Origin: Patescibacteria group bacterium
GTDB lineage: Bacteria > Patescibacteriota > JAHJAL01
Length of the DNA stretch: 64,000 nucleotides
Assembly (NCBI GenBank): GCA_041648895.1
Contig: JBAZOB010000001.1
Location: 15,093 to 79,092 of the forward strand
Reading direction: 5' to 3'
Each line of letters begins with the position of its first letter. The stretch's first letter is position 1. This document shows positions 34,210-58,430 of the stretch, in pieces. A model generated the notes under the pieces. The model did no database searches and was not told the origin of the DNA. It saw only the letters and a program-made list of their open reading frames with translations. Position numbers and translations under genes: made by a program.

Positions 34210-34283
34210 TCCGGAGTAGCTCAGCTGGTTAGAGCGACTGACTGTTAATCAGTAGGTCGTGGGTTCGAGTCCCACCTCCGGAG
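34210..34283 (+). tRNA. tRNA-Asn (anticodon GTT); no encoded CCA.
   Basis: Hand fold: acceptor TCCGGAG/CTCCGGA, D-arm GCTC-AGCTGGTTA-GAGC, anticodon stem ACTGA/TCAGT with loop CTGTTAA, T-arm GTGGG-TTCGAGT-CCCAC. Confidence 0.8.
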
Positions 34284-35768
34284 TTTGTAAGAACACTCTT
34301 TAGCCTGCAGAAGAAGGTCGAAGGGTGTTTTTAGTTTGTAGATTATGTTTTCGTCTTTCAGTTGTAAGTTCGAAAATACGAATTTGAGTAATTGCCGTTT
34401 TTTGTCTATTTCCGAACTTTTGGCAAAAATTTGAGGAGCTTTGGAACAGACATTTAGTAGAAAGGTAACTGATTTTACGAATTTTTCATCAGCCTCAGTA
34501 TGATCTTTCATAGACTGAGTAATTTCATATTGTCTATTTTTTAAATCTTTGGCTTTTTTGTCATATTCATCTTGAGTAATACTCCTATTAATACAGAGGT
34601 CCAAGAGTGTATCAAGAGAGGTTTGAATTTTGGTGTATTCGGTTTGAAGTTCGGTAATACTATTTTTATGGTATTCAATTTTGGCTTGGTGAGTTTGGTT
34701 AACTTGATTAATTAGATCGGCGAGGATATCGTCCGGAATAACTAATAAATCGAGTATTTTATTGATTTGTTTTAATAATTGCTTTTCTTCCATTCTTTTG
34801 GCTCCGTGTTTGCCTTTTGATTCGGTACATTTGAGATAGATATATTTATTTTTCTTTTTGTCTGATGAGATAGCACATCCACAATCAGCACATTCAATCA
34901 TTCCTCGACCTAAAACTGAAGCATGGATAGTGGACCATTTGAAGGGTTTTTTGTGATAACCTTGGATAACATCCTGACAGCGATCAAATAATTCTTTAGT
35001 AATTAGATTACCGTGATTGTGCGGTGCTATATTTTCTTTAACTTTCATCATTCCGTAATAAAACGGATTGGTAATGACATGGTTTAACCGACTGTGGGAT
35101 AAATAATTATAGGGAGGTTTGTTGTTGGTAAGACCTTTCTTTTTCATTAAATTTGCTAATCCGCGGATGGAATAACTGCCGGTAGCATATAGGTTGAATA
35201 TTTCTTGGACCAAATACGCTCTTTGTTTGTCTATAATAATAATTTTTCTTTTTGTGATTGGGTCTTCTTCATTTAGATAACCAATTGGTGCTTTAGTTAG
35301 CCATTCGCCACGTTTGATTTTTCCTTCGAATGCGCGTTTGACGTTGTCGCTTATTGCATCGGAATAGTATTTGGCTAGTCCAAGATTCATGGCGAAATGA
35401 AATTTTTCAACGGCGGATATATTGGAATTAATAACAAGGTTATCTGAAACAAAGTGCATTTCAATTTTATCCAACATTGTCATCTCGTACAGGTTGGATA
35501 TTCTTTTATCAAAAACATTTCGGGAAAATCTATCAACTTTATCAAAACAAATTACTAATTTTTCTTTTGATTTTTTGATGTAATCAATCATTTTGTCAAA
35601 ATCATCTCTTTTGTTTCGATATGCTCCTTCGTCAAAACTGTATTGTTTAACGATGGGGAGGTCTTTTTTTTGACAATATTTAATCATCCGATCAGTTTGA
35701 GCTGGTAGGGAATTACCAGCGTCTTTTTGCTCTTCGGTTGATACTCTGGCTAATATTATGGCTTTCAT
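34245..35768 (-). CDS. Large serine recombinase (resolvase catalytic domain, recombinase domain, zinc ribbon); integrase of the downstream island. The 3' end overlaps tRNA-Asn.
   Basis: N-terminal MKAIILARVSTEEQ...SLPAQ (catalytic Ser). FDKVDRFSRNV. Zn ribbon CADCGCAIS...C. The last roughly 13 codons run through the tRNA-Asn 3' half on the opposite strand. Confidence 0.75.
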   Translation of the reverse strand: MKAIILARVSTEEQKDAGNSLPAQTDRMIKYCQKKDLPIVKQYSFDEGAYRNKRDDFDKMIDYIKKSKEKLVICFDKVDRFSRNVFDKRISNLYEMTMLDKIEMHFVSDNLVINSNISAVEKFHFAMNLGLAKYYSDAISDNVKRAFEGKIKRGEWLTKAPIGYLNEEDPITKRKIIIIDKQRAYLVQEIFNLYATGSYSIRGLANLMKKKGLTNNKPPYNYLSHSRLNHVITNPFYYGMMKVKENIAPHNHGNLITKELFDRCQDVIQGYHKKPFKWSTIHASVLGRGMIECADCGCAISSDKKKNKYIYLKCTESKGKHGAKRMEEKQLLKQINKILDLLVIPDDILADLINQVNQTHQAKIEYHKNSITELQTEYTKIQTSLDTLLDLCINRSITQDEYDKKAKDLKNRQYEITQSMKDHTEADEKFVKSVTFLLNVCSKAPQIFAKSSEIDKKRQLLKFVFSNLQLKDENIIYKLKTPFDLLLQAKECSYKLRRWDSNPRPTD

Positions 35769-35866
35769 TTGGTAAAAAAGTGATTATTGTTATAAAATTG
35801 AAGTAGTGTTTATAATCTAATGTTATCAAATGTTATCATATTTATCAAAAATGAGATAAAAATATT

Positions 35867-36076
35867 ATGGATAAAAAAATAGACAATGATGTGAATCCGG
35901 AAATGTCAAAATTACTTACTTTGAAGCAGGCTTGTGAGATATTGCAATGTCATCCCAATACTTTGAGGCAGTGGGATAAAAAGGGCATATTGAAAGCGAT
36001 AAGAATTGGTATTAAAAAAGCGAGAAGGTATAGGAGAGAGGATATAGAGGAGTTTATTAATAAGAAGTATGATTAA
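35867..36076 (+). CDS. Excisionase/AlpA-like helix-turn-helix DNA-binding protein.
   Basis: LLTLKQACEILQCHPNTLRQWDKKGILKAIRIG is a MerR/excisionase-type HTH in a 69-aa protein next to the integrase. Confidence 0.55.
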   Translation: MDKKIDNDVNPEMSKLLTLKQACEILQCHPNTLRQWDKKGILKAIRIGIKKARRYRREDIEEFINKKYD

Positions 36077-36130: not shown

Positions 36131-39100
36131 ATGAATAAAGTATTAGATAACAAAAAATCCAAGGTATCGGATGTATTGCTGGCGGAAATAAAAGATAAAG
36201 CCAAATTATCTGTCATTTCAGCATATTTTACTATCTATGCATTTGAAAAACTGAAGAAATCTTTGTCGAAGATTGATTCTTTGCGATTCCTTTTTGTTGA
36301 GCCAACTTTCACTAAAGAGCAGGAAGAAACACGGGAATTTTATATCGATAAACTTGATCGTGAGAAACAATTGTCCGGAACTCAGTACGAGATCAAATTG
36401 AGAAATGAATTGACTCAGTCAAAAGTGGCCAAAGAGTGTGCTGATTGGATTAGAAGCAAAGTGGATTTTCGATCGTTGAAGAAGTCTGATTTGTCTCGGG
36501 CGAGAGCGATTCATGTACAAAATCCGGATTCGGAATTTATAGTACAAGGAACACTTGATTTTACTTCTTCCGGATTGGGTTTTTCCAATTCAAACAAATT
36601 GGAGATGAATGTTTATTCTGATGATCAGGATGCGACGCGTGAGATGCTCACTTGGTTTGACGAAATTTGGAATGATGAAATGCTAGTGGAAGATGTAAAA
36701 GAGGAGGTACTCAAAAGTATCCAGACGATATATAAAGAAAATACGCCGGAATTCATATATTATGTAACTTTGTATAACTTGTTTAAGGAGTATCTGGATG
36801 AATTGACGGAAGAAAATATCATCAAGGTGAAAACCGGAGTTAAGGATTCAATCATCTGGAAGAAGTTATTCAAATTTCAGAAAGATGGTGTAATGGGAGT
36901 TATTGATAAGTTGGAGAAGCATAACGGTTGTATTCTGGCAGATAGTGTTGGATTGGGTAAGACCTTTGAAGGATTGGCGGTAATAAAATACTATGAATTG
37001 AGAAATTATCGAGTATTGGTCCTTTGTCCGAAGAAGTTACGAGATAACTGGATGATGTATCGGTCAAATGATGTGCGGAATATTTTTGCAGAAGATCGGT
37101 TTGGGTATGATATTTTGAATCATACTGATTTGAGTAGGGAAAAAGGAATGTCCGGGGATATTAATCTGGAGACAATTAATTGGGGTAATTATGATTTGGT
37201 TTTGATTGATGAGTCACATAATTTCAGAAATAATGATTCCTTAAAAAACAAGAAAACAAGATATAGGAAGTTGATGGATGATATTATCCGGACCGGGGTA
37301 AAGACTAAGGTATTGATGTTGTCAGCTACGCCGGTAAATAACAGGATGAATGATTTGAAGAATCAAATTGCTTTTATTACTGAAGGTAATGATGAAGCGT
37401 TGTTGGATGAAGGGGTGAAGAATATAGGTAATACTTTTAGGTTGGCGCAATATCAATTCAATAAGTGGTTAGATCGGCCTCTGAATGACAGGGGGCTGGA
37501 CTCTTTGTTGGCTAGTTTGAATGTTGACTACTTTAAGTTATTAGATGCGTTGACTATAGCTCGATCCCGGAAGCATATCGAAAAATATTATGATTTGTCG
37601 GAAGTGGGCCGTTTTCCTGATCGACTTAAGCCGTTGAATATTAAATCAAAGGTGGATTTGAAAGGTGATTTTCCCAGTTTTGAAGATATAAACGATTCGA
37701 TTAAAAGGTTGTCGATGGCGATATATTCACCTTTGCAGTATGTCAGGTCGGACCGGGTGAAGAAATATCAGAAGAAATATGATCGAGAGGTTAAGGGTGG
37801 ATCTTATTTTCGGCAGACAGATCGAGAGAAAAATATTGTTAATCTAATGCGGGTAAATATTTTGAAGAGATTAGAAAGCTCGATTTTTTCATATAATCTG
37901 ACATTGACTAGACTAGCGGGTAAGATAGAAGAAATATTGCAAATGATTGATGATTTTCATGATTCTGGTAGATATAGTTTGGATTTAGATGATGCACCGG
38001 AGAGTATTGATGGAGATGATGAACAGTTGGAATCAATGACGGTTGGTAACAAGATTAGTGTAGAGTTGGCCGATATGGATCTGATCCGATGGAAAGATGA
38101 TTTGCAGTCTGATTTAACCAGATTGAAAGATTTGATAAGTTTTGCGGAGCCAATTAATACAGATTCTGATGCTAAACTGGCAGATTTGAAGAAAATAATT
38201 GCTGATAAAATTAGCAATCCGATTAATGATAATAATAAGAAGGTGGTGGTTTTCAGTGCTTTTTCTGATACGGCGGAGTATTTGTATAAATACATTTCCG
38301 AATGGTTGGAAAATAAATTTAACCTACATTCAGCTTTGGTAACTGGTGGCACTACTAATAAAACAACTTCTGACGAGATTAAAACTGATTTGAATAGTAT
38401 TTTGACTAATTTTTCGCCGGTATCAAAAGAAAAGGCAAAAGTTTTTCCGGGAGTGAAAGATGAAATTGATGTTTTGATTGCAACGGATTGCGTATCAGAA
38501 GGCCAGAATTTGCAAGATTGTGATTATTTAATAAACTATGACATCCATTGGAATCCGGTGCGGATTATCCAGCGTTTTGGGCGTATTGATCGAATTGGGT
38601 CCGTTAATGAAAAAATTCAACTGGTTAATTTTTGGCCGGATATGGAGCTGGATGAATATATTAATTTGGAACAACGGGTCCGAGGGCGGATGATATTACT
38701 TAATGCCAGCGCGACGGGTGAAGAGGACATTATCAATGAAACTGATAAAGATGTGATGAATGATATCGAGTATCGTAAGAATCAATTGACCAGATTGCAG
38801 GAGGAGGTTTTGGACCTGGAGGATATTTCGGGGAATATTTCGATTACAGATATGACTATGAGTGATTTTAAGATGGATTTGATGGAGTATCTCAAAGATA
38901 ATCGTGAATTATTGGAAAGATCGGCGCTTGGTATGTATGCGATTGTGTCAAAGGATGAGTCTTTGGAAGATTTGTCGTCGGGGGTGATATTTACCTTGCG
39001 ACAGGTGGATTTTTCAGAAGCGAAATCTGGAGAGACAAATGCGATTCATCCATATTATATGGTCTATATTGGTGATAATGGAGAGGTAAAATTGACTTAT

Positions 39101-39385
39101 TTGCAGGCCAAGTATGTGCTGGATATATTCAAAAAACTTTGCAATGGTAATAATCTGGTTCATCGAGATTTGGTAGAATTGTTTGATAAAGAGACTCAAG
39201 AAGCCAAAGACATGTCAAAATATTCAGATTTATTGAGGCAGTCAATTGAGCATATTATCGGAGAGAAGCAAGAAAAAGGGATTGAAGATATTTTCAGCAG
39301 TCTGGGAAAGACAAATATTGCCAAAGATGCCTCGTTGTCGTGGATTGATGATTTTGAGTTGATTTCATTTTTGATTATCAAATAG
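36131..39385 (+). CDS. SNF2-family helicase with a roughly 230-aa N-terminal non-catalytic domain.
   Basis: Motif I ILADSVGLGKT. Motif II LVLIDESHNFRN. Motif III LMLSATPVNN. Helicase-C motif VI QRFGRIDRIGS. Confidence 0.8.
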   Translation: MNKVLDNKKSKVSDVLLAEIKDKAKLSVISAYFTIYAFEKLKKSLSKIDSLRFLFVEPTFTKEQEETREFYIDKLDREKQLSGTQYEIKLRNELTQSKVAKECADWIRSKVDFRSLKKSDLSRARAIHVQNPDSEFIVQGTLDFTSSGLGFSNSNKLEMNVYSDDQDATREMLTWFDEIWNDEMLVEDVKEEVLKSIQTIYKENTPEFIYYVTLYNLFKEYLDELTEENIIKVKTGVKDSIIWKKLFKFQKDGVMGVIDKLEKHNGCILADSVGLGKTFEGLAVIKYYELRNYRVLVLCPKKLRDNWMMYRSNDVRNIFAEDRFGYDILNHTDLSREKGMSGDINLETINWGNYDLVLIDESHNFRNNDSLKNKKTRYRKLMDDIIRTGVKTKVLMLSATPVNNRMNDLKNQIAFITEGNDEALLDEGVKNIGNTFRLAQYQFNKWLDRPLNDRGLDSLLASLNVDYFKLLDALTIARSRKHIEKYYDLSEVGRFPDRLKPLNIKSKVDLKGDFPSFEDINDSIKRLSMAIYSPLQYVRSDRVKKYQKKYDREVKGGSYFRQTDREKNIVNLMRVNILKRLESSIFSYNLTLTRLAGKIEEILQMIDDFHDSGRYSLDLDDAPESIDGDDEQLESMTVGNKISVELADMDLIRWKDDLQSDLTRLKDLISFAEPINTDSDAKLADLKKIIADKISNPINDNNKKVVVFSAFSDTAEYLYKYISEWLENKFNLHSALVTGGTTNKTTSDEIKTDLNSILTNFSPVSKEKAKVFPGVKDEIDVLIATDCVSEGQNLQDCDYLINYDIHWNPVRIIQRFGRIDRIGSVNEKIQLVNFWPDMELDEYINLEQRVRGRMILLNASATGEEDIINETDKDVMNDIEYRKNQLTRLQEEVLDLEDISGNISITDMTMSDFKMDLMEYLKDNRELLERSALGMYAIVSKDESLEDLSSGVIFTLRQVDFSEAKSGETNAIHPYYMVYIGDNGEVKLTYLQAKYVLDIFKKLCNGNNLVHRDLVELFDKETQEAKDMSKYSDLLRQSIEHIIGEKQEKGIEDIFSSLGKTNIAKDASLSWIDDFELISFLIIK

Positions 39386-39386
39386 G

Positions 39387-40163
39387 ATGAAGGAACAAGT
39401 AATACAATTGATGGGATTGAGGCGGGACAAGATTTTGCAGGACAAAAAAATTGCCAAGACCAAGTTTTATGAGCTGGATGATTTTGATAACGGAAAGAAA
39501 AAGATATTTACAGATGAGATTGTAGATATTACTTTGTTGGCGATTCTCAATGAAGAAACGATCAATATTGCATCTTATAAAGATAATGAAGTGAATTATA
39601 GTGAAGTGTATGTTGTCTATGTAGAATTGAAGAAGAATCAAAATATAGGCAAGATTGTTGAGAGTATTCAGAAGAATATTATCAATCCGGTGATTGTGGT
39701 GTTTGGTTGGCAGGATCGCATTTGTTTGGCGACAGCGCGTAAAAGATTGAGTTTGAATGAAAAAGGTAAACAGGTAGTGGAAAGTGAGCAGATGACAGAT
39801 TGGTTGTCTTTGTCGGATCAAACACAGCCGGTGCGGGATTACTTGATGGGACTGGATATTGCCAATTTTTCTTTTCTGAATTTGTATGAGTTTTATCGGG
39901 AATATTCTTTGTATGTTTATCAATCGGTTTTGATGCAATTTGAATCCGGTTTTCATTTCCGCAAGCAGTTGGTGATTGATCAGATCAAGCCGGAGATTGA
40001 GCTATGTGTGGCAAAAAGTGTTGAGGTCAAACGATTGCAGGATGAAGAGAAAATGGCGATCAATTTTGGGGACCGGATTGCGGTTCATCAGAAGTTGATT
40101 GAGGCGCAAAAGGAAGAGGTGGAAGTTAGGGAAAATATTAAGAAAAAATTAATAAATACTTAA
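39387..40163 (+). CDS. Hypothetical protein, possibly DUF4391-like, translationally coupled between the SNF2 helicase and the methyltransferase.
   Basis: Start is 1 nt after the helicase stop. 258 aa with no catalytic motifs. The family assignment is from memory of gene-neighbourhood associations only. Confidence 0.4.
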   Translation: MKEQVIQLMGLRRDKILQDKKIAKTKFYELDDFDNGKKKIFTDEIVDITLLAILNEETINIASYKDNEVNYSEVYVVYVELKKNQNIGKIVESIQKNIINPVIVVFGWQDRICLATARKRLSLNEKGKQVVESEQMTDWLSLSDQTQPVRDYLMGLDIANFSFLNLYEFYREYSLYVYQSVLMQFESGFHFRKQLVIDQIKPEIELCVAKSVEVKRLQDEEKMAINFGDRIAVHQKLIEAQKEEVEVRENIKKKLINT

Positions 40164-40187
40164 GTTGGATTTGATAAAATTATAACT

Positions 40188-42089
40188 ATGAAAAAAATTG
40201 ACGGTAAAACAAGTGATTTGATTGCAGAAAATATCGAGAAGTTGAAACAACTTTTTCCGGAGATTTGGGAAGAGGGGAAAGTTGATTTGGAAATGTTGAA
40301 GAAGTTATTGGGTGAGAAAGTGGAGACGGATCGAGAGCGATATTGTTTTTCTTGGCATGGCAAGTCGGATGCAATCAAGATGGCTTTGAAGCAATCGACG
40401 GGGACTTTGAGGCCAAAGAAGGCGGATAGTAAAGATTGGGACAAGACGAATAATCTGTATATTGAGGGTGATAATCTGGAGGTGTTGCGGGTGTTGCAGG
40501 ATAGTTATCGGGGTAAAGTAAAAATGATATATATCGACCCCCCTTACAACACAGGGAAGGATTTTGTGTATGAGGATAATTTTGCGGATAATATCCAGAA
40601 TTACAAGGAAAAGGTGGGAGATACGATGAAAGCCAATGCGGATTCGAGTGGGCGAAAGCATACCAATTGGCTCAATATGATGTATCCGAGGTTAAGGTTG
40701 GCGAGGAATTTGCTTAAGGATGATGGAGTGATATTTATATCGATTGATGATAATGAGCAGGCGAATTTGAAGAAGGTTTGTGATGAGATTTTTGGGGAGG
40801 AGAATTTTATAGAAAATTATATTTGGGAAAGTACTTTTCGTCCGGATAATAGTTCTTCAATTGAACGAAAAAATGCTCAGTATGTTACTAGTTTTGCAAA
40901 GGATAAAAATTTAATTAATCAATTAATTGGTGGTCCAAAAAAAACTGAAGGACTTCCTTCATTAACTAAGAATTCAATGAAGGAGGGAATTCTAAATTTT
41001 CCGTCTAATACAGTTAAAATATTGTTTAATGATGGTATATATTTAGCGGGTAAGAAGGATTCGGGATACGAGCTTCTTGATAATGTTGAGGTAGTTTCGG
41101 GAGTAAATTTGAATTCATTTAGATTAAAAGGTCGTATGATATGGAGTCAAGATTATCTCGAGAATGAATTGAACAATGGTACTGAGATTATTTTTAAAGG
41201 AGAAAATTTTGTCCCATATTCAAAAAAATTAGAAGTGGGAATTTTGGCTCCAACAAAGATTATACCTAAAGATTATGTACAGGATGTGCTTGCTGGACGT
41301 GCAGAATTAAAATCAATTTTGGGACAATCAATATTTGATTATCCCAAGCCTTTGTCTTTGATTAATTATTTGCTTAGCTTTCTTGAGTGTGAAGAAGAAT
41401 GTATTGTTTTAGATTTCTTTTCAGGTTCGGCAACGACTGCCCATTCGGTGATGCAGTTGAATGCGGAGGATGGGGGGAATAGGAAGTTTGTTATGGTCCA
41501 GTTGCCGGAGGTTACGCAGGAAGATAGTGAGGCGAGGAAGGCGGGGTATAAAAATATTTGTGAGATTGGGAAGGAGAGGATTAGACGGGCGGGGGAGAAG
41601 ATTGTGAAGGAGTTGAAGGAGAAGCAAGATAAAAAACAGGAAAAATTGATTGAAGGTGGGGAGAAGGTGGTGAATCCGGATGATTTGGATGTTGGGTTCA
41701 AGGTGTTTGAGTTGGATGAGACCAATTTTACGAAGTGGGATCCAAATACGCAGGATGTCGAGAAGTCGATGATGGACCAATTGACACCGATCAAAGCAGA
41801 TCGAGCGGATGAGGATGCGGTTTATGAGATTATGTTGAAATATGGAGTTGATTTGACGATGCCGATTGAGGAGTTGAAATTGGCGGGGAAGAAAGTATTT
41901 TCTTTGGCTGGAAATTATTTGTTGCTATGTTTGGAAAAGCAGATTGGTTTGGAGACGGTTGGCGAGATGGCAAAACTGAGTCCGCATCGAGTAGTTTTCT
42001 TTGATGATGGATTTGCGGATGATACAGTCAAAGCCAATGCGGAGCAGACTTTGAAGAAGGCGGGGGTTGAGGAGATATTGGTAATCTAA
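40188..42089 (+). CDS. N6-adenine/N4-cytosine DNA methyltransferase, type III Mod-like, of the beta-class N6_N4_Mtase family.
   Basis: Motif IV IYIDPPYNTGKDF precedes motif I LDFFSGSATTAHS (beta-class order). 633 aa. Confidence 0.8.
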   Translation: MKKIDGKTSDLIAENIEKLKQLFPEIWEEGKVDLEMLKKLLGEKVETDRERYCFSWHGKSDAIKMALKQSTGTLRPKKADSKDWDKTNNLYIEGDNLEVLRVLQDSYRGKVKMIYIDPPYNTGKDFVYEDNFADNIQNYKEKVGDTMKANADSSGRKHTNWLNMMYPRLRLARNLLKDDGVIFISIDDNEQANLKKVCDEIFGEENFIENYIWESTFRPDNSSSIERKNAQYVTSFAKDKNLINQLIGGPKKTEGLPSLTKNSMKEGILNFPSNTVKILFNDGIYLAGKKDSGYELLDNVEVVSGVNLNSFRLKGRMIWSQDYLENELNNGTEIIFKGENFVPYSKKLEVGILAPTKIIPKDYVQDVLAGRAELKSILGQSIFDYPKPLSLINYLLSFLECEEECIVLDFFSGSATTAHSVMQLNAEDGGNRKFVMVQLPEVTQEDSEARKAGYKNICEIGKERIRRAGEKIVKELKEKQDKKQEKLIEGGEKVVNPDDLDVGFKVFELDETNFTKWDPNTQDVEKSMMDQLTPIKADRADEDAVYEIMLKYGVDLTMPIEELKLAGKKVFSLAGNYLLLCLEKQIGLETVGEMAKLSPHRVVFFDDGFADDTVKANAEQTLKKAGVEEILVI

Positions 42090-42201
42090 GTTAGTTATAG
42101 ACTGCACAAACTAAAACTAAAAATAACAAAGAAATTAGGTATTTTTTGATTTCATATCTGTTACAAGACTACACAGACTAAAGTCGACTAAACAATTTAT
42201 A

Positions 42202-45200
42202 ATGACAAAATTAAAATTACAATTTGATGCCAATCAGGAATTTCAAAAACAAGCTGTGGATGCGATAGTTGATGTTTTTGACGGGCAACCTTTGAAGCAA
42301 TCAAAGTTTACGGTATCAGTGGCGGATGGTTCGTTGTTTGGTAAAAATACGGAGTTGGGGTATGCCAACAAATTGGATTTGATGCCGGAAGATTTGTTGA
42401 AAAATGTGATCAAGATTCAGGACCGGAATCATTTGAAAAGAAGTGAGGGTTTGTTGGATGCGGATTATGGAGTGCCAAACTTTGCGATTGAGATGGAGAC
42501 GGGGACTGGCAAGACTTATGTATATACGCGGACTATATTGGAATTGAATAATAAATACGGTTTTACCAAGTTTATCGTCGTGGTCCCAAGTGTGGCTATC
42601 CGTGAAGGCGTGAATAAATCTTTGGATATTACCAAGGATCATTTTGAAGAGTTGTATCAAGGGCAGAAGTTTAATTATTTTGTATATAATTCAGATCGTT
42701 TGACGGAAGTGCGCAATTTTGCGACCAGTGATTCAATCGAAATCATGGTTATCAATATTGATGCATTTCGCAAAGGATTTGAAGAGGACAACAAGAGTAA
42801 CAAGAATGCGACAAGGATACACAAAGAACAGGATAAGTTGGAAGGACGACGGCCGATTGAATTTATCCGTGATACCAATCCAATTGTGATTATTGATGAG
42901 CCACAGTCGGTTGATAATACCGAGAAATCCAAAGAGGCAATCAAGGCGCTCAATCCAATGTGTATCGTGCGGTATTCGGCTACTCATAGAAATACCTATA
43001 ATTTGATGTATCGACTTGGTCCGATCGAGGCTTATGAAAATAAATTGGTAAAAAAGATTGAGGTGGTAGCGGTGGAAGGAATGGGCAGTGGTCCATATAT
43101 GAAGCTGGAAAAAGTACAAAAAGCGCCTAATGGATCTTATTCGGCGGATGTGGTTTTGAGCGTGTTGGATAAAAAAGGCGAAGCGAAAATAAAGAGAGTA
43201 AAAATCAATACCGGTAAGCGTAAGAGTTTTTTTGATGTGTCCGGACAAAATGAGATATACAAAAATTATGTGGTGACAAATATCAGTATTGAATCCGGAA
43301 TGGAATATATTGAGTTTGAGACGGGTGATATCTTGAAGCTGAATCAAAATACAGATGATTTGGAAATTAAGCGTACTCAAATCAGGTCCACAATCGAATC
43401 ACATTTGGAAAAGGAATTGAGATTGTTGGATAAAAATATCAAAGTTTTGTCACTTTTCTTTTTGGATCGAGTAAATAATTATCGGGAATATCTTAATGAA
43501 GGTGGATTCAAGAAGGGAAAATACGCGCAGATTTTTGAGGAAGAATATGTGAAGATAATTAAATTGCCAAAATATAATCAACTTTTTGTAACTGAAAAAT
43601 CCAAACAATATGCTTTGTGTGAGGATGTTGACAAAATTCATGATGGATATTTTGCGCAGGATAAGAAGGGTGTATTCAAAGAATCGCGAGGCGAGGGTTC
43701 GAGTCAAGCTGATGAGAGTGCGTATGATTTGATCATGAAAGAAAAAGAGACACTATTGAGTTTTGATACTCCATTGAGATTTATTTTTTCGCATTCAGCT
43801 TTGAAAGAAGGTTGGGACAATCCAAATGTGTTTCAGATTTGTACCTTGGTGGAGAGTGCAGACACCATGACCAAAAGGCAGAAGGTGGGGCGGGGTTTGC
43901 GGTTGCCGGTCAATCAATCCGGAGAAAGAATATTTGATGACAATATCAATATTTTGACGGTGGTGGCCAATGAGAGTTTTCAGAGTTTTGCTGAGAATTT
44001 GCAAAGAGAGATTGAAAAGGATACCAATACCAAATTTGGAGTAGTGGAAGAGCGATTGTTTGAGAATATTTTGTTTGAAAAAGAAGGTAAGGTCGGAGAG
44101 TTGGGTTATAAAGAGTCAAAAGAAATTTGTGAGTATTTGAGAGAGCAAGGTCTGGTGGACAAAAATGGTAAAGTGAAGGACGAATTGAGACAAATAGTGG
44201 CTCGGGAAGAAAGTGGCGAAGATGCCTTGGTTTTGCCAATGAAGTTTGTACCAATCAAAAAGAAAATAGTGGAACAGATAAAGACAACATTGAAACGATT
44301 GCCAATAGTAGATAGCAAAAAGAAAGAAAAGGTATCGATCAATAAGCAGGTGTTTTTGAGTGATGATTTCGTTGAATTGTGGAATAGGATCAAATACAAG
44401 ACTGTCTATAAGTTGGACTTTAATAGTGCAACATTGATTGAGAATTGTATTCATGAGGTCCGAAAGATGCCGGAAATTAGGTCCAATGCGATCGTGGCGC
44501 GCTGGATTGATTTGCAGATTGACAAGAGGGGCGTGACATTCGATGAACCAAAAAAGATTCGTGATTATGTGCGTGAAAAATATGACCAAAAGCAGTTGCC
44601 GGATATTTTGCGTTTTATTGCCACTTATACAGGACTTAAAAAAAGATCGATCGCGGATATCTTGCTAAGGTCCCAGACCATAGATGCTTTTTATATCAAT
44701 CCGCAGGAATATATGGAGCAAGTGATTCAGATAATCAATATTGAGAAAAGAAAGCTGATTGTGGACGGTATTAAATATGACAAGATTGGTGACGATGTTT
44801 TTTATCAACAAGAATTGTTTGAAAATGAAGAGTTGATTGGTTATCTCAAGGACAATGCTATTCAGGTAGAAAAGAGTGTTTATTCTCATGTGATTTATGA
44901 TTCGGATATTGAGATGACTTTTGCCGAAAGACTGGAAAATGATGTTGATGTAAAACTTTACGCCAAATTACCTGATTGGTTTAAAATTGAAACTCCATTG
45001 GGTGATTACAATCCGGATTGGGCGATATTGTTGGAAAAGAATGGAGTTGAGAAGTTGTATTTTGTGATCGAGACAAAGGGGTCTATTTTGTCGGAAGATT
45101 TGCGACCGATAGAGCAGGGAAAGATAGAGTGCGGGCAGAAGCATTTTAAAGCGCTAGGGACCGGAGTGAAGTTTGAGAAGGTGAGAAGTTATGAGGAGTG

Positions 45201-45219
45201 GCGAGGCATAATTAGATAA
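42202..45219 (+). CDS. Type III restriction enzyme Res subunit: SF2 helicase domain plus C-terminal PD-(D/E)xK nuclease.
   Basis: Motif I METGTGKTYV. Motif II VIIDEPQS. C-terminal YNPDWAILLE...YFVIETKG nuclease motif. 1005 aa. Confidence 0.8.
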   Translation: MTKLKLQFDANQEFQKQAVDAIVDVFDGQPLKQSKFTVSVADGSLFGKNTELGYANKLDLMPEDLLKNVIKIQDRNHLKRSEGLLDADYGVPNFAIEMETGTGKTYVYTRTILELNNKYGFTKFIVVVPSVAIREGVNKSLDITKDHFEELYQGQKFNYFVYNSDRLTEVRNFATSDSIEIMVINIDAFRKGFEEDNKSNKNATRIHKEQDKLEGRRPIEFIRDTNPIVIIDEPQSVDNTEKSKEAIKALNPMCIVRYSATHRNTYNLMYRLGPIEAYENKLVKKIEVVAVEGMGSGPYMKLEKVQKAPNGSYSADVVLSVLDKKGEAKIKRVKINTGKRKSFFDVSGQNEIYKNYVVTNISIESGMEYIEFETGDILKLNQNTDDLEIKRTQIRSTIESHLEKELRLLDKNIKVLSLFFLDRVNNYREYLNEGGFKKGKYAQIFEEEYVKIIKLPKYNQLFVTEKSKQYALCEDVDKIHDGYFAQDKKGVFKESRGEGSSQADESAYDLIMKEKETLLSFDTPLRFIFSHSALKEGWDNPNVFQICTLVESADTMTKRQKVGRGLRLPVNQSGERIFDDNINILTVVANESFQSFAENLQREIEKDTNTKFGVVEERLFENILFEKEGKVGELGYKESKEICEYLREQGLVDKNGKVKDELRQIVAREESGEDALVLPMKFVPIKKKIVEQIKTTLKRLPIVDSKKKEKVSINKQVFLSDDFVELWNRIKYKTVYKLDFNSATLIENCIHEVRKMPEIRSNAIVARWIDLQIDKRGVTFDEPKKIRDYVREKYDQKQLPDILRFIATYTGLKKRSIADILLRSQTIDAFYINPQEYMEQVIQIINIEKRKLIVDGIKYDKIGDDVFYQQELFENEELIGYLKDNAIQVEKSVYSHVIYDSDIEMTFAERLENDVDVKLYAKLPDWFKIETPLGDYNPDWAILLEKNGVEKLYFVIETKGSILSEDLRPIEQGKIECGQKHFKALGTGVKFEKVRSYEEWRGIIR

Positions 45220-46818: not shown

Positions 46819-47964
46819 CTATTCTATTTTAAGATCTGTAATTTTTGTTGGTATAAATTCATTTAATCGCTTTCTTATATCAATTAACAGATTATATTTA
46901 CTGTTTTCGGGGATGTGGAGTTTGAAAATTTTTCTTTTCAGTCTGTACCAATAGCTATGATCGGGGCCGGAATCAATAATATTTCTCAGCCGATCATAAC
47001 TGCCGGAATTTATGGCCAAAATTACCGCGGATAATTCAAGTAAATCGCGGTTTTTTAATTTGGGGTTGTTTTGCCTGATGGTTTCAATGGTCTCGATGGC
47101 GGATTTGTCTTGGAGTAATAGGATTGCTTTGTTTTCGGTGAGTATGGACCAGTAGTAAAGCAGGATTTTTTGAGAGATTGACTGACTGAATAGTTGTTTG
47201 AAGCTTAATTCGGTTCTGATATTGATTTTTTTGAATATTGATTTGATTTTGGAGGTCTTATTTAACCTGATTTCCAGCCGGAGGATGTTGCGGTGTTTGG
47301 GTTGGTTTAATTCATCTAACAGATTAAGCTGGATGGAATTGTCATTTTCAATTGATCGCTTGTCGGATATTTTAGCCAGTCCCAATTCTTTGATTTTGTC
47401 GTATATGGCTATTTCGTAGCTGTTGGCGTGATAATGAAGTGATTGTCCGCCGTTTTTGAAGCGCTCACGATTGGCTTCGAGTCGTGGTAGGGGATTCAAT
47501 TTGGCAAGGTCGGATATGATCATCGAGGGGGTGGTGTGGTATGGGAGAGGGACGTTTTTTGAATAGTGGATGGAGGTAATCGGGGCGTTGTCGAGTTGGA
47601 TATCGAATAATTCAACTCCCATTTCTTTTAGTGTTTTTTGAAGATGGTCATGGATTTTCTGATAGTCATTGTCTGTTAATTCATCGAAGTTGTTATTGAA
47701 TAGTAATTTTGGCAATGATAATTCAATCCGGAGTTTGGGAATTATACCAAATTGACCCATGACAACGATCAAGGTTAGGCGTGGTTTGTAAATTCCGGCT
47801 GATAATTCTCTTTTGCTTGGATTTTGGGTAGCTTTGATATATTCGCGCGGTTTCATATTGTTGGCTTGGTCCCAGAATCTTTTTTCTGATTTGATTGAGA
47901 ACTTACTCCAATCCCAAATTGAGAATTTACCGTGTGGCAATGTTATGACTGTTGTATCGATCAT
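46819..47964 (-). CDS. Hypothetical protein; the context near SpoVG-like suggests a plasmid/phage replication or partition function, but this is unsupported by motifs.
   Basis: 381-aa ORF. The start region overlaps the downstream SpoVG-like ORF by 38 nt, so the real start may be internal. Confidence 0.35.
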   Translation of the reverse strand: MIDTTVITLPHGKFSIWDWSKFSIKSEKRFWDQANNMKPREYIKATQNPSKRELSAGIYKPRLTLIVVMGQFGIIPKLRIELSLPKLLFNNNFDELTDNDYQKIHDHLQKTLKEMGVELFDIQLDNAPITSIHYSKNVPLPYHTTPSMIISDLAKLNPLPRLEANRERFKNGGQSLHYHANSYEIAIYDKIKELGLAKISDKRSIENDNSIQLNLLDELNQPKHRNILRLEIRLNKTSKIKSIFKKINIRTELSFKQLFSQSISQKILLYYWSILTENKAILLLQDKSAIETIETIRQNNPKLKNRDLLELSAVILAINSGSYDRLRNIIDSGPDHSYWYRLKRKIFKLHIPENSKYNLLIDIRKRLNEFIPTKITDLKIE

Positions 47965-48241
47965 CAGAATGCATTACTTTTTTATACTGCTTAATAATTG
48001 CTCGCTCGATCAGTGTGGATGTTTCTTTATTAATGGGGTGAAATAGTTGAATATGGTTATTGCTTACCTTTTTGGTGGGGTAGGTGAGACGATATCCGTC
48101 TTGGGTTAGTTTGCTGTGAATTCCGACCGAGCTGAGGTATATTTTGTTGTCCAATACAAAGCTGGCGAAGGCAAGCAGGCCATTATGGGGTTTGATCGGG
48201 ATTATTTGGATTTCCGTTACTTTGGTTGTTGCTTTTTTCAT
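47927..48241 (-). CDS. SpoVG-family nucleic-acid-binding protein.
   Basis: IQIIPIKPHNGLLAFASFVLDNKIYLSSVGIHSKLTQDGYRLTYPTKK...HIQLFHPINKETSTLIERAII matches the SpoVG pattern (I.V......GL.A.AS...D..F.V.D..V.....G.........DG.FR.....HPI...TR..I). Confidence 0.55.
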   Translation of the reverse strand: MKKATTKVTEIQIIPIKPHNGLLAFASFVLDNKIYLSSVGIHSKLTQDGYRLTYPTKKVSNNHIQLFHPINKETSTLIERAIIKQYKKVMHSDDRYNSHNIATR

Positions 48242-49343: not shown

Positions 49344-50702
49344 ATGTCTAAGGTGAATTGGCAAAATTTTGGTTTGAAGAGTAATCCTTATCTAACCGAT
49401 CCTTTAGTGGAGGGTGGGCAATTAAACATAGATAAGGCATTTGTTGGTAGGCAAGTTGAAATACGTACTATCAATGATCAGATTGAGAGTTTAAATAATT
49501 TGTGCATGATTATAAGTGGTGATGTAGGTGTAGGAAAAACTAGTTTAGTTAATTATGTAAAATATTTTTGGAAGCATAAAGGTAGAGATAAATATTTGTT
49601 TTCATCACGGAGAGAAATTGAGGCAAACGAGAATATTTTAGATAAAAGCTCTTTTTTACTCGAAGTTATAGGTTCGATTATTGGAGAAATTGAATTGTTG
49701 GATCCTGATTTAATGAAGGATCCATTACTTGATAAAGTTAAACAATTAATAGATGTTACGCAGTCTATTTCATATAGTGGTGAGTTTTCTTTAGCTGGTT
49801 TTGGAGGTGGGGGTGGAAAAGAAACTCAGATTTCTCAACCAATTAAATTACCTTATTCGATATTGGAGAGTTATTATAAAAAATTACTAGATTTTGTTTG
49901 TCAACATAAGATTAATTCAGTTGTTAATAGTGGATTGATTATTCATGTAAACAATTTTGATGTTGTGATGATGGAGAAGACTTCAAAGAAGAAAGTAATA
50001 AGGTTTTTTAATGAAATAAGGGATATTTTACAACAAGATAAAGTGTATTATTTCTTTTTAGGACCAAGAAATTTTTATAAGGATATTATATCTACTCAGA
50101 AAAGGGTAAAAGGAGTATTTTTTCAATCCCCATTACAAATTAAACCATTGAGCAAGAACGATGTTGTGTCGGCATTAAATGAGAGAATGTTTTTGTTAAA
50201 ATCTGAGGGAGTAGAAAAATTTATTAAACCGATTGATGATAAGGTAGTTTATCAGCTTTATGATTTGTATGACGGTGATATTAGGATGGTTCTTTGTTCT
50301 TTGTATAATATTCTTACTCAAGTTAATGTTGCTTCTTCGAAAACTATTGGCGCAGATCGTTCGAAGGCATATCTTTGTGAGTGGTGTTGGGAGAATGTTG
50401 AGAAGTGTCTTAAAATTACTGACAAACAGAAAGATATTTTGAAATATATTTCGAGTGTAGACAAAGACATAACTCAAAACGATATAGCTAAGGAATTTAA
50501 AATTGTTCAAACGAATGTGTCTGGTTATTATATGAAACCGTTGAGGGAAAATAATATTATTGAAGAAAAGAAGAAGGAAGGTAAATTAACTTATTGGGGT
50601 TTGACTCGGGAATATTTGCCTCTAAAATGGATGAATGAAGTTAAAGAAAACATGGTAGATGAAAAAAAGATTGTCGAGACGCAACTAAAATTATTTGGCT
50701 AA
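49344..50702 (+). CDS. AAA+/P-loop ATPase with a C-terminal winged-helix DNA-binding domain (Orc1/Cdc6- or archaeal-ATPase-like).
   Basis: Walker A ISGDVGVGKTSLVNYV. Walker B-like IIHVNNFDVV. C-terminal DILKYISSVDKDITQNDIAKEFKIVQTNVSGYYMKPLRENNII is wHTH-like. Confidence 0.55.
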   Translation: MSKVNWQNFGLKSNPYLTDPLVEGGQLNIDKAFVGRQVEIRTINDQIESLNNLCMIISGDVGVGKTSLVNYVKYFWKHKGRDKYLFSSRREIEANENILDKSSFLLEVIGSIIGEIELLDPDLMKDPLLDKVKQLIDVTQSISYSGEFSLAGFGGGGGKETQISQPIKLPYSILESYYKKLLDFVCQHKINSVVNSGLIIHVNNFDVVMMEKTSKKKVIRFFNEIRDILQQDKVYYFFLGPRNFYKDIISTQKRVKGVFFQSPLQIKPLSKNDVVSALNERMFLLKSEGVEKFIKPIDDKVVYQLYDLYDGDIRMVLCSLYNILTQVNVASSKTIGADRSKAYLCEWCWENVEKCLKITDKQKDILKYISSVDKDITQNDIAKEFKIVQTNVSGYYMKPLRENNIIEEKKKEGKLTYWGLTREYLPLKWMNEVKENMVDEKKIVETQLKLFG

Positions 50703-50868: not shown

Positions 50869-51885
50869 ATGGGTATAGAAAATTCGAAAGAAAAATATTT
50901 TGGTTTGGAGAATGTGCCTGTTGGCAAGGGTGCTGTGTTAAGAGGTTGGAATTTGCCCGAAGACTATTTTCGTAATCCGGATAATTTGCCGGTTGTAGAT
51001 TTCAGGGCGATGACGCATGAGTGTCGTCATAATTGTTTTCATTGTTTTACTGACAAGAATAAAAAAACTCTGCCTTTATCAAAGATTAAAAGTGTAATTG
51101 ATGAGTTGGCTAACTATAACACGTTTGCCATAAATTATCTTGGGGAGGGTGAGCCGACTTTAGATAAGGATTTTTTTGAAATTGTGGAATATACCAAGGG
51201 AAAAAACATTCAGCCGATTGTATTTACGGATGGAGCGACCAAATTAACTAACAGGAAATTTGTCCGAAGATTGAAAGAGTCGGGGGCTTCAGTGTGTCCA
51301 AAATGTGACAGTCTTTGGAATGCTGAGTATCAAAATATGGTGGTGAGTGATAAGAATGGAAAATATTTTAAGGCGAGGAATAAAGCGGTACAGATATTAA
51401 TTGAGGAGGGATTCAATCAGCCTAGTGATGATGGTACTACTAGACTAGGTTTTGATATGGTAGTTACTAAAGCTAATATGCATGAGGTGTCTAAAACGTT
51501 AAGGTATTGTAGAGAAAATAACATTTGGATAGTTTTTGCTTTTTATTTGCCTTCTGGCAGAAGTGGTACGGAGTATTTTGATAAAGAGTTGGTTTTGACG
51601 TTTGATGAGAAGAAGTATTTGTGTAGTCAGATTAAGCGAATAGATGAGAAAGAATATGGTTTTTATCATCAAGTGATTAATAATTTTGCCACAATACCTT
51701 GTGTTGAATTGATGCAGATATATGGTGATGGGCGGGTGAGTCCTTGTCCTGGCAATGAGAATGTAGTCGGAAATGTGGAAAAGGATTCTATCAAGGATTT
51801 GAAAAAGAAGATAATTGATAAATATCCGGTTCATGAGCAAAAGAGTTTTGATGGATATTGCCCTTATCGAGAAAGATTGGAATAA
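50869..51885 (+). CDS. Radical SAM enzyme with a C-terminal Cys-rich (twitch/SPASM-like) region.
   Basis: CX3CX2C motif ECRHNCFHC near the N-terminus. GEPTL glycine-rich SAM motif. C-terminal PCVELMQIYGDGRVSPCPG...CPYRE cysteines. Confidence 0.7.
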   Translation: MGIENSKEKYFGLENVPVGKGAVLRGWNLPEDYFRNPDNLPVVDFRAMTHECRHNCFHCFTDKNKKTLPLSKIKSVIDELANYNTFAINYLGEGEPTLDKDFFEIVEYTKGKNIQPIVFTDGATKLTNRKFVRRLKESGASVCPKCDSLWNAEYQNMVVSDKNGKYFKARNKAVQILIEEGFNQPSDDGTTRLGFDMVVTKANMHEVSKTLRYCRENNIWIVFAFYLPSGRSGTEYFDKELVLTFDEKKYLCSQIKRIDEKEYGFYHQVINNFATIPCVELMQIYGDGRVSPCPGNENVVGNVEKDSIKDLKKKIIDKYPVHEQKSFDGYCPYRERLE

Positions 51886-52115: not shown

Positions 52116-52913
52116 ATGTCACTTATGATTATTGATGCTCATACTCATATTTACGATGACAAAAAATATCGGGACTATCAGGCTAAAGCAAAAGACAGAA
52201 TTTTAAAAATGATAGTGTTAGGTTGGTACAAAGATAAGTTGGTTGATTATCTAAAATTTGCTGATACAGAGGTTAATCTGTTTTTTACTGGAAGTGTGGA
52301 TATGGATAGAAATGTTGCAAAGCAATTGAAGTTAATTGAGAAAACACTTAAGGAAAATAAGATTTATGGCGTAAAGCTGTATCCTGGCTATCAGTATTTT
52401 TTTCCGTCTGATGAAAAAGTTTATCCGATAGCTGAGCTTTGTCAAAAGTATGACAAACCGTTGATATTTCACAGTGGTGATGTTTGGAATCCCGAAGGTG
52501 ATGCTATTTTGAAATATTCTCATCCGATATATATCGACGAGTTGGCGGTTAAGTTTCCAAAATGCAAGATGATTATTTCTCACTTTGGTTTTCCTTATAT
52601 CTTGGAGACGGTTAATGTGGTGAGTAAAAATAAAAATGTTTTTACCGAGATATCTGGCACTATTGAAAAGGATAAAAACAGTTCTGATAAAGAGACAGAG
52701 GAATTGGCTGAGCAATATATCAAAGATTTGAAGCGGGTGTTTGCTTATTTTCCTGGAGTAAAGAAAAAGACAATGTTTGGTACGGACTATGGTGGCGAGA
52801 ATACTCCGCTTAATCAAATTGAGCCTTATATGAAGGTTGTGGAGTCAGTGTTTACGGATGAGGAGCAGAAGAGTGTTTTTGGGGGTCTGGCTGAAAGATT
52901 GTTTTTTGAATGA
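52116..52913 (+). CDS. Amidohydrolase-family (TIM-barrel metal-dependent hydrolase, Amidohydro_2-like) protein.
   Basis: N-terminal IIDAHTHIYDD metal-binding His pair. Later HSGD and ISHFGFPY motifs. Confidence 0.6.
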   Translation: MSLMIIDAHTHIYDDKKYRDYQAKAKDRILKMIVLGWYKDKLVDYLKFADTEVNLFFTGSVDMDRNVAKQLKLIEKTLKENKIYGVKLYPGYQYFFPSDEKVYPIAELCQKYDKPLIFHSGDVWNPEGDAILKYSHPIYIDELAVKFPKCKMIISHFGFPYILETVNVVSKNKNVFTEISGTIEKDKNSSDKETEELAEQYIKDLKRVFAYFPGVKKKTMFGTDYGGENTPLNQIEPYMKVVESVFTDEEQKSVFGGLAERLFFE

Positions 52914-53074: not shown

Positions 53075-53701
53075 ATGTTAGTTTTTATAGATGAATCAGG
53101 TGATTCTGGCTTCAAGTTGCAAAAAGGTTCAACTACCAGTTTTGTGGTGGCTTTGGTGATATTTAATGAAAATTTAGATGCAGAAGAGACGGCAGTTGAA
53201 ATTAAAAAGTTTAGAAAAAAGATTGGCAAAACTGACCGGTTTGAATTTAAGTTTAATAAATGTAATAAAGAATTGAGAGTCGGTTTTCTAAAAGCAGTTA
53301 AGAAGTGTAATCTTCGGATAAGGGTAATTGTGTTTGATAAGGAAAAAATATATAGCATTCATTTAAAAAGGAAAACGGAGACTTTTTATAAGTTTGCCAT
53401 ACGTCAGGTTTTGCAGCACAATGGCAAGACTATCAAGAATGCCAAGATAAAATTGGATGGTTTGGGTGAGCGTAAGTTTAGGAAAGCTTTGACAACTTAT
53501 TTACGGAAATATTTGAATACTGATTATGAGAGGATTATGGATAATTTGCGTTTTGTTGATTCCAAGAGCAATGTATTGATTCAATTGGTGGATATGGTGG
53601 CTGGAGCTATAAGGATTAGTTATGATGCCAATCGTAAAGATGCTGGTGAATATAAAAAAATCATCAAGAATAGAATTGATGATTTGTGGGAGTTTGAATA
53701 A
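53075..53701 (+). CDS. DUF3800-family protein.
   Basis: N-terminal MLVFIDESGDSGFK is the diagnostic DUF3800 FIDESG motif. 208 aa. Confidence 0.6.
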   Translation: MLVFIDESGDSGFKLQKGSTTSFVVALVIFNENLDAEETAVEIKKFRKKIGKTDRFEFKFNKCNKELRVGFLKAVKKCNLRIRVIVFDKEKIYSIHLKRKTETFYKFAIRQVLQHNGKTIKNAKIKLDGLGERKFRKALTTYLRKYLNTDYERIMDNLRFVDSKSNVLIQLVDMVAGAIRISYDANRKDAGEYKKIIKNRIDDLWEFE

Positions 53702-53934
53702 AGTTTGATCTCGTTTCTATCCTAAGGATTCTTAGGAACGCTGCCATACGGCAACAGTTCGAAAACGAGATCTTTGTATTTAAAATTTATCATATTTGGG
53801 ATGATTTTTCAATAAAGCGGTTCGAACATCGTGTATTCACGCGGAGTTTTTGACACGAAGCTTGAATCTGTTTTGGTTTAGGTTTTTTTATATTTGATAT
53901 AGTTAGATTTGTAATAGGAGATAAGGAAATTGGA
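53702..53934. repeat. Conserved intergenic module, copy 3. It begins with a 66-nt multi-hairpin element, then GGTTCGAACATCGTGTATTCACGCGGAGTTTTTGACACGAAGCTTGAATC.
   Basis: GATCTCGTTT...AAACGAGATC is a 10-bp closing stem around the CCTAAG/CTTAGG and TGCC/GGCA hairpins. The downstream box is near-identical to copies 1 and 2. Confidence 0.7.
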
Positions 53935-54156
53935 ATGAAGTTTATTAAGGAAAATTTGCTGGTTTTGTCAATTTTGCTGATTGTAATTGGTTTTTTGGTA
54001 GGTAGCATGGTTCTTGTTTGTCCAATAATCGGACCATGTTTCTATGTTCATGACTATTATAAAATTTTGGTATATGTTTTATTTGCTGTAGGGTTTTTGT
54101 CGCTAATCTTTTCTTTTATTTTGCGGTTGATATATATATTTCAAAGAAAAAAATAA
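53935..54156 (+). CDS. Small membrane protein of 73 aa with two TM helices.
   Basis: LLVLSILLIVIGFLVGSMVLV and ILVYVLFAVGFLSLIFSFIL. It sits between two copies of the conserved intergenic module. Confidence 0.4.
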   Translation: MKFIKENLLVLSILLIVIGFLVGSMVLVCPIIGPCFYVHDYYKILVYVLFAVGFLSLIFSFILRLIYIFQRKK

Positions 54157-54290: not shown

Positions 54291-54437
54291 GAAAACAAAA
54301 ATAGTTTAGAGATAGTTAAGCCACTATTGAGTAAATTGTCTGAGGATTATCAGAAAGTTTTGGATGACAATTTTGTGGGTTTCTATGTCTTTGGATTTGG
54401 TTGGAAGATGTTTGTGCCATGAATGAATCTGTAGTGG

Positions 54438-58375: not shown

Positions 58376-58430
58376 GTTTGTTGTTATAATTAATCTAGTG
58401 AGTATTATTTTTTTAATTGATGGAGGTTTT

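Follow-up and report, generated by a model that had tools for sequence, protein, structure and literature searches.

A type III restriction-modification unit with a conserved SNF2-DUF4391 accessory module on a Patescibacteria group genomic island

The stretch of DNA analyzed here, a window of 64,000 nucleotides (nt) from a Patescibacteria group bacterium (contig JBAZOB010000001.1 of assembly GCA_041648895.1), carries a cassette of four genes at positions 36131-45219. They encode a SNF2-family ATPase, a small protein of the DUF4391 family, and the Mod and Res subunits of a type III restriction-modification (R-M) system. This unit represents a widespread and apparently unnamed form of type III R-M that carries a conserved accessory motor module. 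On balance, and with somewhat better than even confidence, we regard it as one co-inherited defense operon, a type III R-M system expanded by an accessory ATP-driven module. All four open reading frames (ORFs) are on the + strand, with the SNF2 gene at 36131-39385, the DUF4391 gene at 39387-40163, mod at 40188-42089, and res at 42202-45219, and the gaps between them are, in order, 1, 24, and 112 nt. An earlier, sequence-only reading of this DNA had described the four co-directional ORFs, the 1-nt gap between the SNF2 and small genes, and the 24-nt gap before the methyltransferase gene, and all of these were confirmed. As judged from profile matches, the domain calls for the cassette are well past chance.

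Mod and Res form the type III-like methyltransferase-Res pair that the sequence-only reading had proposed, since PADLOC calls them type III R-M and their motifs are intact. Mod (633 amino acids, aa) is a beta-class N6-adenine DNA methyltransferase and specificity subunit that matches the PADLOC MTase_III profile PDLC03634 over residues 2-632 (1.1e-200) and Pfam N6_N4_Mtase (PF01555) at 2e-26. Its motifs, read from the sequence, follow the beta-class order: DPPY117, the target-recognition domain (TRD), and VLDFFSGSATT at about residue 407. The mod gene is directly upstream of res on the same strand, which is the type III gene order. Res (1005 aa) combines a superfamily 2 (SF2) ATPase with a C-terminal PD-(D/E)xK endonuclease and matches the PADLOC REase_III profile PDLC03647 over its full length (E=0, 1017.7 bits), as well as Pfam ResIII (1.9e-14) and RE_endonuc (1.9e-39, aa 890-995). 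The motifs GTGKT101, IIDEPQ, GRGLR563, and PD937...E957xK959 can be read in it, and this PD-(D/E)xK motif is the sole intact nuclease motif found in the unit. Against the NCBIfam type III equivalog PRK15483, Res reaches 1e-109, yet its 367.9 bits fall below the cutoff of 564, which indicates that it belongs to a distinct Res subfamily. The TRD is a hypervariable region at 40808-41404 (+), and nowhere else does the cassette fail to align with a sister island, locus L001. Across 12 diverse loci, the set to which all mean identities and distance correlations given here refer, the mean identity of the TRD is 20%, and its distances correlate with those of the other genes at rho of only about 0.3. 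In three Melainabacteria/Vampirovibrionia metagenome-assembled genomes (MAGs), the Mod gene is divided between two ORFs, of 205 aa and about 420 aa, which have about 25 nt in common (L002, 12715-14563; L003, 11339-13211; L004, 11402-13253); possible explanations are a frameshift common to all three, a phase-variable switch, and a Mod that is truly split.

The first gene of the cassette encodes a SNF2 protein of 1084 aa. Pfam detects SNF2-rel_dom (2.4e-13, aa 250-419) and Helicase_C (6.3e-16, aa 685-823), so that the motor core with both RecA-like lobes occupies 36878-38599 (+), and the motifs GLGKT274, DESH360, SATP398, and QRFGRIDRIG814, read from the sequence, mark the ATPase as intact. The motor is the best-conserved part of the cassette, with a mean identity of 58%. 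The best profile for the whole protein is PADLOC PDLC01075, "C3a139 HKD+Snf2," which is matched at 7.2e-142 with residues 1-1082 aligned to profile positions 1-946 of 948. PADLOC output names no system for this profile; we assign it to the effector of Gao_RL/MANTIS, because its architecture fits the HKD-endoDNase plus Swi2/Snf2 effector of Gao_RL. Gao_RL has been described as a Type-2 BREX-related system (PMC12839542) and was recently renamed MANTIS, with MtsD as its effector (bioRxiv 10.64898/2026.09.23.753747). On the strength of this profile match, the SNF2 protein is a full-length homolog of the HKD(PLD)-SNF2 effector MtsD. A search of PDB sequences with the SNF2 protein returned RapA and eukaryotic remodelers only, and neither MtsD nor SauUSI was among the matches.

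The sequence-only reading had described the N-terminal domain of the SNF2 protein as non-catalytic. That domain is real and can now be identified as a PLD/HKD fold with a decayed active site (aa 1-235, 36131-36835, +). Pfam PLDc_2 is weak or faint both in the window protein (0.019) and in its relatives. The window motif reads H128-V-Q...GTLDF, as opposed to the catalytic HxK...GSxN. When 16 relatives from DUF4391 loci are aligned, the Lys position holds Q, D, E, T, or A, and the His is absent from the SNF2 proteins of B. cereus, E. coli, and Lactococcus. A further 120 homologs of the N-terminal domain have His at the His position in 21 cases, Lys at the Lys position in five, and Glu or Asp at that same position in 81, while the Asn position is occupied by Phe in all 120. 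The nearest outgroup examined, a Nostoc relative with 27% identity and no DUF4391 neighbor, retains H-A-K...GSSN. Judging from these alignments, the PLD domain is kept as a fold, and its active site is decayed across the clade. In MtsD, the two PLD domains of a dimer pair into one active site with the catalytic residue H122 (bioRxiv 10.64898/2026.09.23.753747), and the dead domain is probably retained for dimerization or as a scaffold. The clade itself is tight on plasmids, where about 110 records show 43-52% identity before a sharp fall to 27% and lower. Relatives at 25.6-27.0% identity are found in other multi-gene units, in Nostoc (L021), Halorubrum (L026), and Euzebya (L027). The Nostoc protein, the only one of the three in which HKD intactness was checked, is paired with a TaqI-like methyltransferase-specificity protein, and those of Halorubrum and Euzebya have hypothetical proteins of about 1370 aa as partners, accompanied in Euzebya by a phosphorothioated-DNA-binding endonuclease. 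These three appear to be further uncharacterized HKD-SNF2 systems.

For the small protein of 258 aa encoded by the second gene, the sequence-only reading had guessed DUF4391, and correctly so: the match to Pfam PF14335 spans the whole domain (6.6e-35, 121.5 bits vs. a cutoff of 29.9, residues 19-243 vs. profile positions 10-231 of 232). PF14335 is a family of about 1029 clusters at 50% identity, nearly all of them stand-alone proteins of about 250 aa. An AlphaFold2 model of the window protein is confident (pLDDT 94.1, pTM 0.89) and consists of an alpha/beta N-terminal domain (residues 1-140) followed by a long antiparallel helical hairpin (147-257). No solved structural relative emerged from a profile search of PDB sequences, which was empty, or from Foldseek, which found nothing below E=0.014. 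The invariant residues of the family (K24, F27, L54, T58, I61, E73, I98, P101, K119, R120, and W139) form no recognizable catalytic constellation. A role as a nuclease was considered and rejected, the conserved acidic cluster being absent and the topology mismatched, and co-variation with the specificity domain of Mod was likewise rejected (rho about 0.3). DUF4391 is the fastest-evolving protein of the set, with 31% identity in the N-terminal domain and 22% in the C-terminal hairpin vs. 50-58% for the enzymes. It is a probable adaptor or regulator that partners the SNF2 ATPase. Mentions of DUF4391 in the open-access literature searched are uninformative, being limited to an enrichment table and an apparent slip for DUF7941.

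Whether the SNF2 and small genes are conserved together with the Mod-Res pair in other genomes is decisive for reading the four genes as a unit, and the sequence-only reading had named a lack of such conservation as grounds for abandoning that view. The genes are in fact co-conserved in the same order in bacteria and archaea. In 17 of 17 loci anchored on DUF4391, the order is SNF2, DUF4391, Mod, and Res, with passenger genes permitted on either side of Mod; the contig of one locus (L008) ends before Res. These loci comprise L001-L004, which are MAG contigs from Melainabacteria/Vampirovibrionia and the sister island, three plasmids (from Shewanella, Providencia, and the archaeon Methanomethylovorans), and ten metagenome or MAG loci, including Caldilineaceae, Desulfuromonadales, Pseudomonadota, and a marine (Tara) contig. 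A scan of genome contigs with close DUF4391 alignment gave only four loci, as pattern-based retrieval is limited. Four of four plasmids anchored on SNF2 (B. cereus, Desulforapulum, Lactococcus, and E. coli) have the same order, with a truncated Res in Desulforapulum. Of the best 40 plasmid hits for Res, 36 come from records also found with SNF2, two from Vibrio probably do, and two lack SNF2; Aeromonas, checked from the Res side, has the full unit. The E. coli version is present in 10 of 5426 complete genomes and is mostly plasmid-borne; one example is at 53151-62182 of NZ_CP046008.1. An inserted gene between SNF2 and DUF4391 was never seen, and the stop codon of the first overlaps the start codon of the second or lies almost next to it. 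The pair was always accompanied by a type III Mod in the loci examined and never stood beside another kind of system. Pairwise distances for SNF2, the Mod core, and Res correlate with one another at rho of 0.85-0.89, and the DUF4391 N-terminal domain correlates at 0.77-0.82.

Mod-Res pairs without SNF2 and DUF4391 are found in Thiodictyon and Monoglobus, and the existence of a closely related pair that lacks the extra genes identifies these genes as an accessory module. From the distribution of its genes, the unit is composed of two modules, SNF2 plus DUF4391 and Mod plus Res, of which the second survives alone and the first was never seen alone. In the Monoglobus plasmid (L019, NZ_OY725736.1, 1-11141), the related Mod-Res has two Mod genes, and upstream of it are RhuM and a different helicase, of the DEAD/DEAH type; this helicase may be an alternative accessory helicase at the position of SNF2 and DUF4391. 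The junctions between DUF4391 and Mod and between Mod and Res are insertion hotspots for defense-type passengers, a pattern that resembles the one known for type I hsd operons. The passengers include RhuM, an MNT/HEPN-like pair, DUF3800, a stand-alone PLD protein, Schlafen/AlbA_2, and an AAA-ATPase with PDDEXK_9, and further YhcG/DUF1016, DUF2513, extra methyltransferases, and insertion sequence (IS) elements. Single passenger sites are located at 12763-14445 in L001, 10804-12396 in L002, 13208-14260 in L003, 8781-9851 in L022, and 8800-9453 in L023, and two sites each are present in L009 (9695-10087 and 12141-12888) and L025 (8762-10308 and 12256-12627). In L012, the cassette adjoins CBASS-like genes.

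A match of the four genes to an already named defense system would have explained them away, as the sequence-only reading acknowledged, but no named model covers all four, and PADLOC calls a system, type III R-M, for Mod and Res only; PADLOC v2 has no model for DUF4391. The unit shares with the classical type III systems EcoP15I, EcoP1I, and StyLTI a beta-class Mod with DPPY and a central TRD, the mod-res order, and a Res composed of SF2 and PD-(D/E)xK domains. Type III enzymes characteristically hemimethylate short asymmetric sites, and their ATP-dependent cutting calls for two unmethylated sites in inverse orientation. The unit differs from the classical systems in adding, upstream, a dead-PLD SNF2 ATPase and DUF4391, often together with a helix-turn-helix (HTH) gene. 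The two-gene description of type III R-M therefore fails for this group, since SNF2 and DUF4391 are upstream in every locus examined that was anchored on either of them. A 2025 survey of lactococcal R-M systems describes type III as R plus M only and leaves the upstream genes unmentioned (PMC12418389). The Lactococcus plasmid of strain UCCL633 carries these upstream genes, and the strain name is absent from the main text of that survey.

The systems that pair a SNF2 helicase with a methyltransferase are also similar only in part. MANTIS consists of the DUF499 ATPase MtsA, the DUF3780 protein MtsB, the methyltransferase MtsC, and the PLD-SNF2 effector MtsD. The TRD of its methyltransferase sets the specificity of the effector, and there is a preference for inverted sites, which type III systems share (bioRxiv 10.64898/2026.09.23.753747). 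Methylation by MANTIS needs MtsA and the small co-regulator MtsB, which load the methyltransferase (bioRxiv 10.64898/2026.09.23.753747). MANTIS and the unit described here both have four genes, and each combines an ATPase and a small protein whose fold is unknown with an adenine methyltransferase and a helicase-nuclease; the SNF2 protein is an HKD+Snf2 homolog. Unlike MANTIS, the unit lacks DUF499 and DUF3780, has lost the PLD site, and contains a type III Mod with a separate type III Res as the nuclease. MtsB is described as strongly positive, whereas DUF4391 is acidic to neutral, and the two are set apart by that description and by the PF14335 assignment. Class 1 DISARM (DrmD SNF2, DrmMI, DrmA, DrmB, and the PLD protein DrmC) also brings together SNF2, an adenine methyltransferase, and a PLD fold, and it yields partial DrmD matches, but the unit has neither DrmA nor DrmB, its PLD is fused and dead, and restriction is the task of a type III Res. 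BREX type 3 and BREX-related systems with BrxHII share self-marking by methylation and a SNF2-family helicase (PMC12839542); the unit differs in lacking PglZ and BrxC/DUF499, and its matches to BrxHI/II are partial. The mismatch with DISARM and BREX that the sequence-only reading had noted is thus borne out, in that DrmA/B, PglZ, and BrxC are missing from the cassette and its scanned neighbors. More fully, DUF499, DUF3780, PglZ, BrxC/PglY, and DrmA/B (DUF1998) were not found in the cassette or in 20 scanned flanking ORFs. The NCBIfam models for DISARM DrmD, DpdE, and ZorD score the SNF2 protein far under their cutoffs, the two DrmD equivalogs giving 144.7 and 109.7 bits vs. cutoffs of 610 and 950. 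No published description of a unit joining SNF2 to type III R-M was found among open-access papers and preprints, which is not proof of absence; the literature retrieved on this combination covered only the related but different HmaA, MANTIS, BREX-related systems, PbeA, and AbiR.

In the single operon that we favor, Mod would hemimethylate host DNA and recognize unmethylated foreign sites, and Res would do the cutting. The SNF2 protein would probably dimerize via its dead PLD domain, by analogy with MtsD, which does so via a live one, and DUF4391 would couple it to the Mod-Res complex. The motor would add translocation along, or remodeling of, double-stranded DNA, so that restriction is strengthened or broadened, and it might aid communication between distant sites or make a pair of inversely oriented sites less necessary. 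Expression would probably be under the control of the upstream HTH protein. Dependence of the motor on the nuclease of Res is best supported by the loss of the PLD site specifically in the clade that stands beside Res. That the cassette serves in defense is suggested by its place as island cargo, by the CBASS-like neighbors in L012, and by the defense-type passengers of related loci. The role of the motor module is suggested by sequence comparison and by analogy. A more specific proposal, which we hold tentatively and consider unlikely, is that DUF4391 tethers a dimeric, dead-nuclease SNF2 translocase to Mod-Res and thereby turns a passively sliding enzyme into an active translocating or loop-extruding machine that cuts at single or same-orientation sites.

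Several observations weigh against a single operon of this kind. The stand-alone Mod-Res of Thiodictyon is nested in the four-gene clade with intact ORFs and without gain or loss of a domain (its Res is 71% identical to that of L022), which indicates that Mod-Res does not require the module. In loci L009 and L011, the SNF2 proteins are 76% and the DUF4391 proteins 58% identical, but the Mod cores are 56% and the Res proteins 50% identical, from which it follows that the two halves can recombine. His128 is present in the window protein, as is the corresponding His in the 21 homologs counted above, so some residual PLD chemistry is possible. DUF4391 is not basic, with an isoelectric point of 5.7 here and a family median of 6.8, and its distances do not follow the Mod TRD, so there is no sign that it reads DNA sites. 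A physical link of SNF2 or DUF4391 to Mod or Res is a proposal, and the sampling of loci was modest and partly redundant.

The modularity of the unit could also mean that two independent systems travel together, an autonomous defense or anti-plasmid pair of SNF2 and DUF4391 placed next to a classical type III R-M system by the clustering of defense genes. That Mod-Res of the same clade occurs alone, that the halves recombine in L009 and L011, and that the junction between DUF4391 and Mod is a hotspot for unrelated defense-like genes, as expected between separate units, all speak for this explanation. Nevertheless, we consider it unlikely, as SNF2 plus DUF4391 had a type III Mod immediately downstream in every locus examined and never neighbored another type of system, and gene order and strand stay constant over a range that reaches from archaea to E. 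coli. In addition, the nuclease site of SNF2 is lost and DUF4391 has no effector motif, leaving the pair without an obvious killing activity of its own. Another explanation, also unlikely in our estimation, treats SNF2 and DUF4391 as a safety or licensing device that controls when Mod methylates or Res cuts, whether by loading or displacing Mod-Res or by alleviating restriction at newly replicated host sites, in analogy to MtsA and MtsB. The requirement of MANTIS methylation for an ATPase and a small co-regulator agrees with such a device, as does the fact that hemimethylation by type III systems leaves transiently unmodified sites after replication, and DUF4391 is small, non-enzymatic, and encoded between the ATPase and the methyltransferase. 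However, the ATPase here is homologous to the effector MtsD and not to the loader MtsA, a sister Mod-Res pair persists alone, and a classical type III Mod binds DNA and methylates unaided.

Two further explanations reassign the purpose of the module or of the whole unit. DUF4391 might act as a guard against anti-restriction, sensing phage inhibitors of type III enzymes or DNA mimics and switching on SNF2, which would strip the inhibitor or trigger a second-line response. Its rapid evolution is a pattern seen at arms-race interfaces, and layered back-up effectors recur in BREX-related systems (PMC12839542). This is distinctly unlikely, however, given that a toxic or abortive effector domain is absent from both SNF2 and DUF4391 and that the low conservation of the hairpin may just be a sign of weak constraint. 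Finally, the unit might not be primarily defensive and could instead be an addiction module that stabilizes mobile elements or an epigenetic regulator. R-M systems can act as addiction modules, and the unit is present on an integrative island and on many plasmids, but this leaves the need for a conserved, active ATPase and DUF4391 unexplained, and the neighborhoods are rich in defense genes (CBASS-like, SIR2, Fic, HEPN/MNT, RhuM, and Schlafen), all of which makes it very unlikely.

The cassette is cargo of an island next to a tRNA gene. The GC content of the window drops from about 0.43 to about 0.34 between about 34 and 55.5 kb, and at the left end of this low-GC island, a large serine recombinase gene (34245-35768, -), identified by its Resolvase, Recombinase, and Zn_ribbon_recom domains, overlaps the 3' end of a tRNA-Asn gene (34210-34283, +; ARAGORN). 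To the left of the island are dnaG, rpoD, and an MFS transporter gene, and the L001 cassette is flanked by the same recombinase at 83% aa identity. A second copy of the tRNA-Asn 3' end that would mark the right end of the island was not found. Between the recombinase gene and the cassette, 54 nt upstream of the SNF2 gene, is a gene for a small HTH protein of 69 aa (35867-36076, +) that had not been part of the sequence-only reading. The protein matches Pfam HTH_17 (3.9e-14) and MerR_1 (1.5e-08). It also matches, at 7.7e-13, the PADLOC profile mad1, which represents the small gene that opens the methylation-associated MADS system. Just upstream of the HTH gene is TTGTTA-18-TATAAT (35787-35816), the region's best promoter-like site; counts of promoter-like and terminator-like sites in the cassette are not above shuffled expectation. 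Other loci also have HTH genes directly upstream of SNF2, of the HTH_17 family in L001, L011, and L025 and of HTH_73 in L005/L006, with further examples in L016 and L017, and L018 has a 237-bp hypothetical ORF at this position. A universal fifth gene is rejected on these grounds, as an upstream small ORF is present in about half of the loci and belongs to three different HTH families. By its family matches and position, the HTH protein probably controls transcription of the operon, and its gene is a facultative fifth member; alternatively, the protein could be the excisionase of the island.

Farther along the island, an AAA_16-type ATPase with a weak CARF-like match (49344-50702), a radical SAM protein with weak similarity to prokaryotic viperins (3e-12; 50869-51885), an amidohydrolase (52116-52913), and a DUF3800/PDC-M04A protein (53075-53701) are encoded and are possible further defense cargo. 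The ORFs between 45364 and 49196 have no family matches except for a SpoVG-like ORF at 47927-48241. The closest relatives of the cassette are in Melainabacteria/Vampirovibrionia MAGs. Over the whole window, GC skew ranges from +0.1 to +0.46 and most genes are on the + strand, which suggests a genome with very strong strand asymmetry.

Type III R-M is handled as a two-gene system by REBASE-style rules, by PADLOC, and by surveys such as PMC12418389. The unit described here points to a large clade with two further conserved genes, on the scale of about 1000 clusters of DUF4391 (at 50% identity) and some 110 plasmid records, whose replicons include plasmids of E. coli, Enterococcus, Listeria, B. 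cereus, and Lactococcus as well as archaeal replicons. It would give DUF4391 its first context and partner. Because the motor is here separated from nuclease activity, the unit also offers a cleaner genetic system for asking what the motor does, and the native E. coli version makes it directly testable. If DUF4391 does tether the SNF2 translocase to Mod-Res as proposed, phages such as T7 would lose the strand-bias route by which they escape type III enzymes, and a first defined job would be found for the recurrent SNF2 helicases of DISARM, BREX-3, and MANTIS-like systems.

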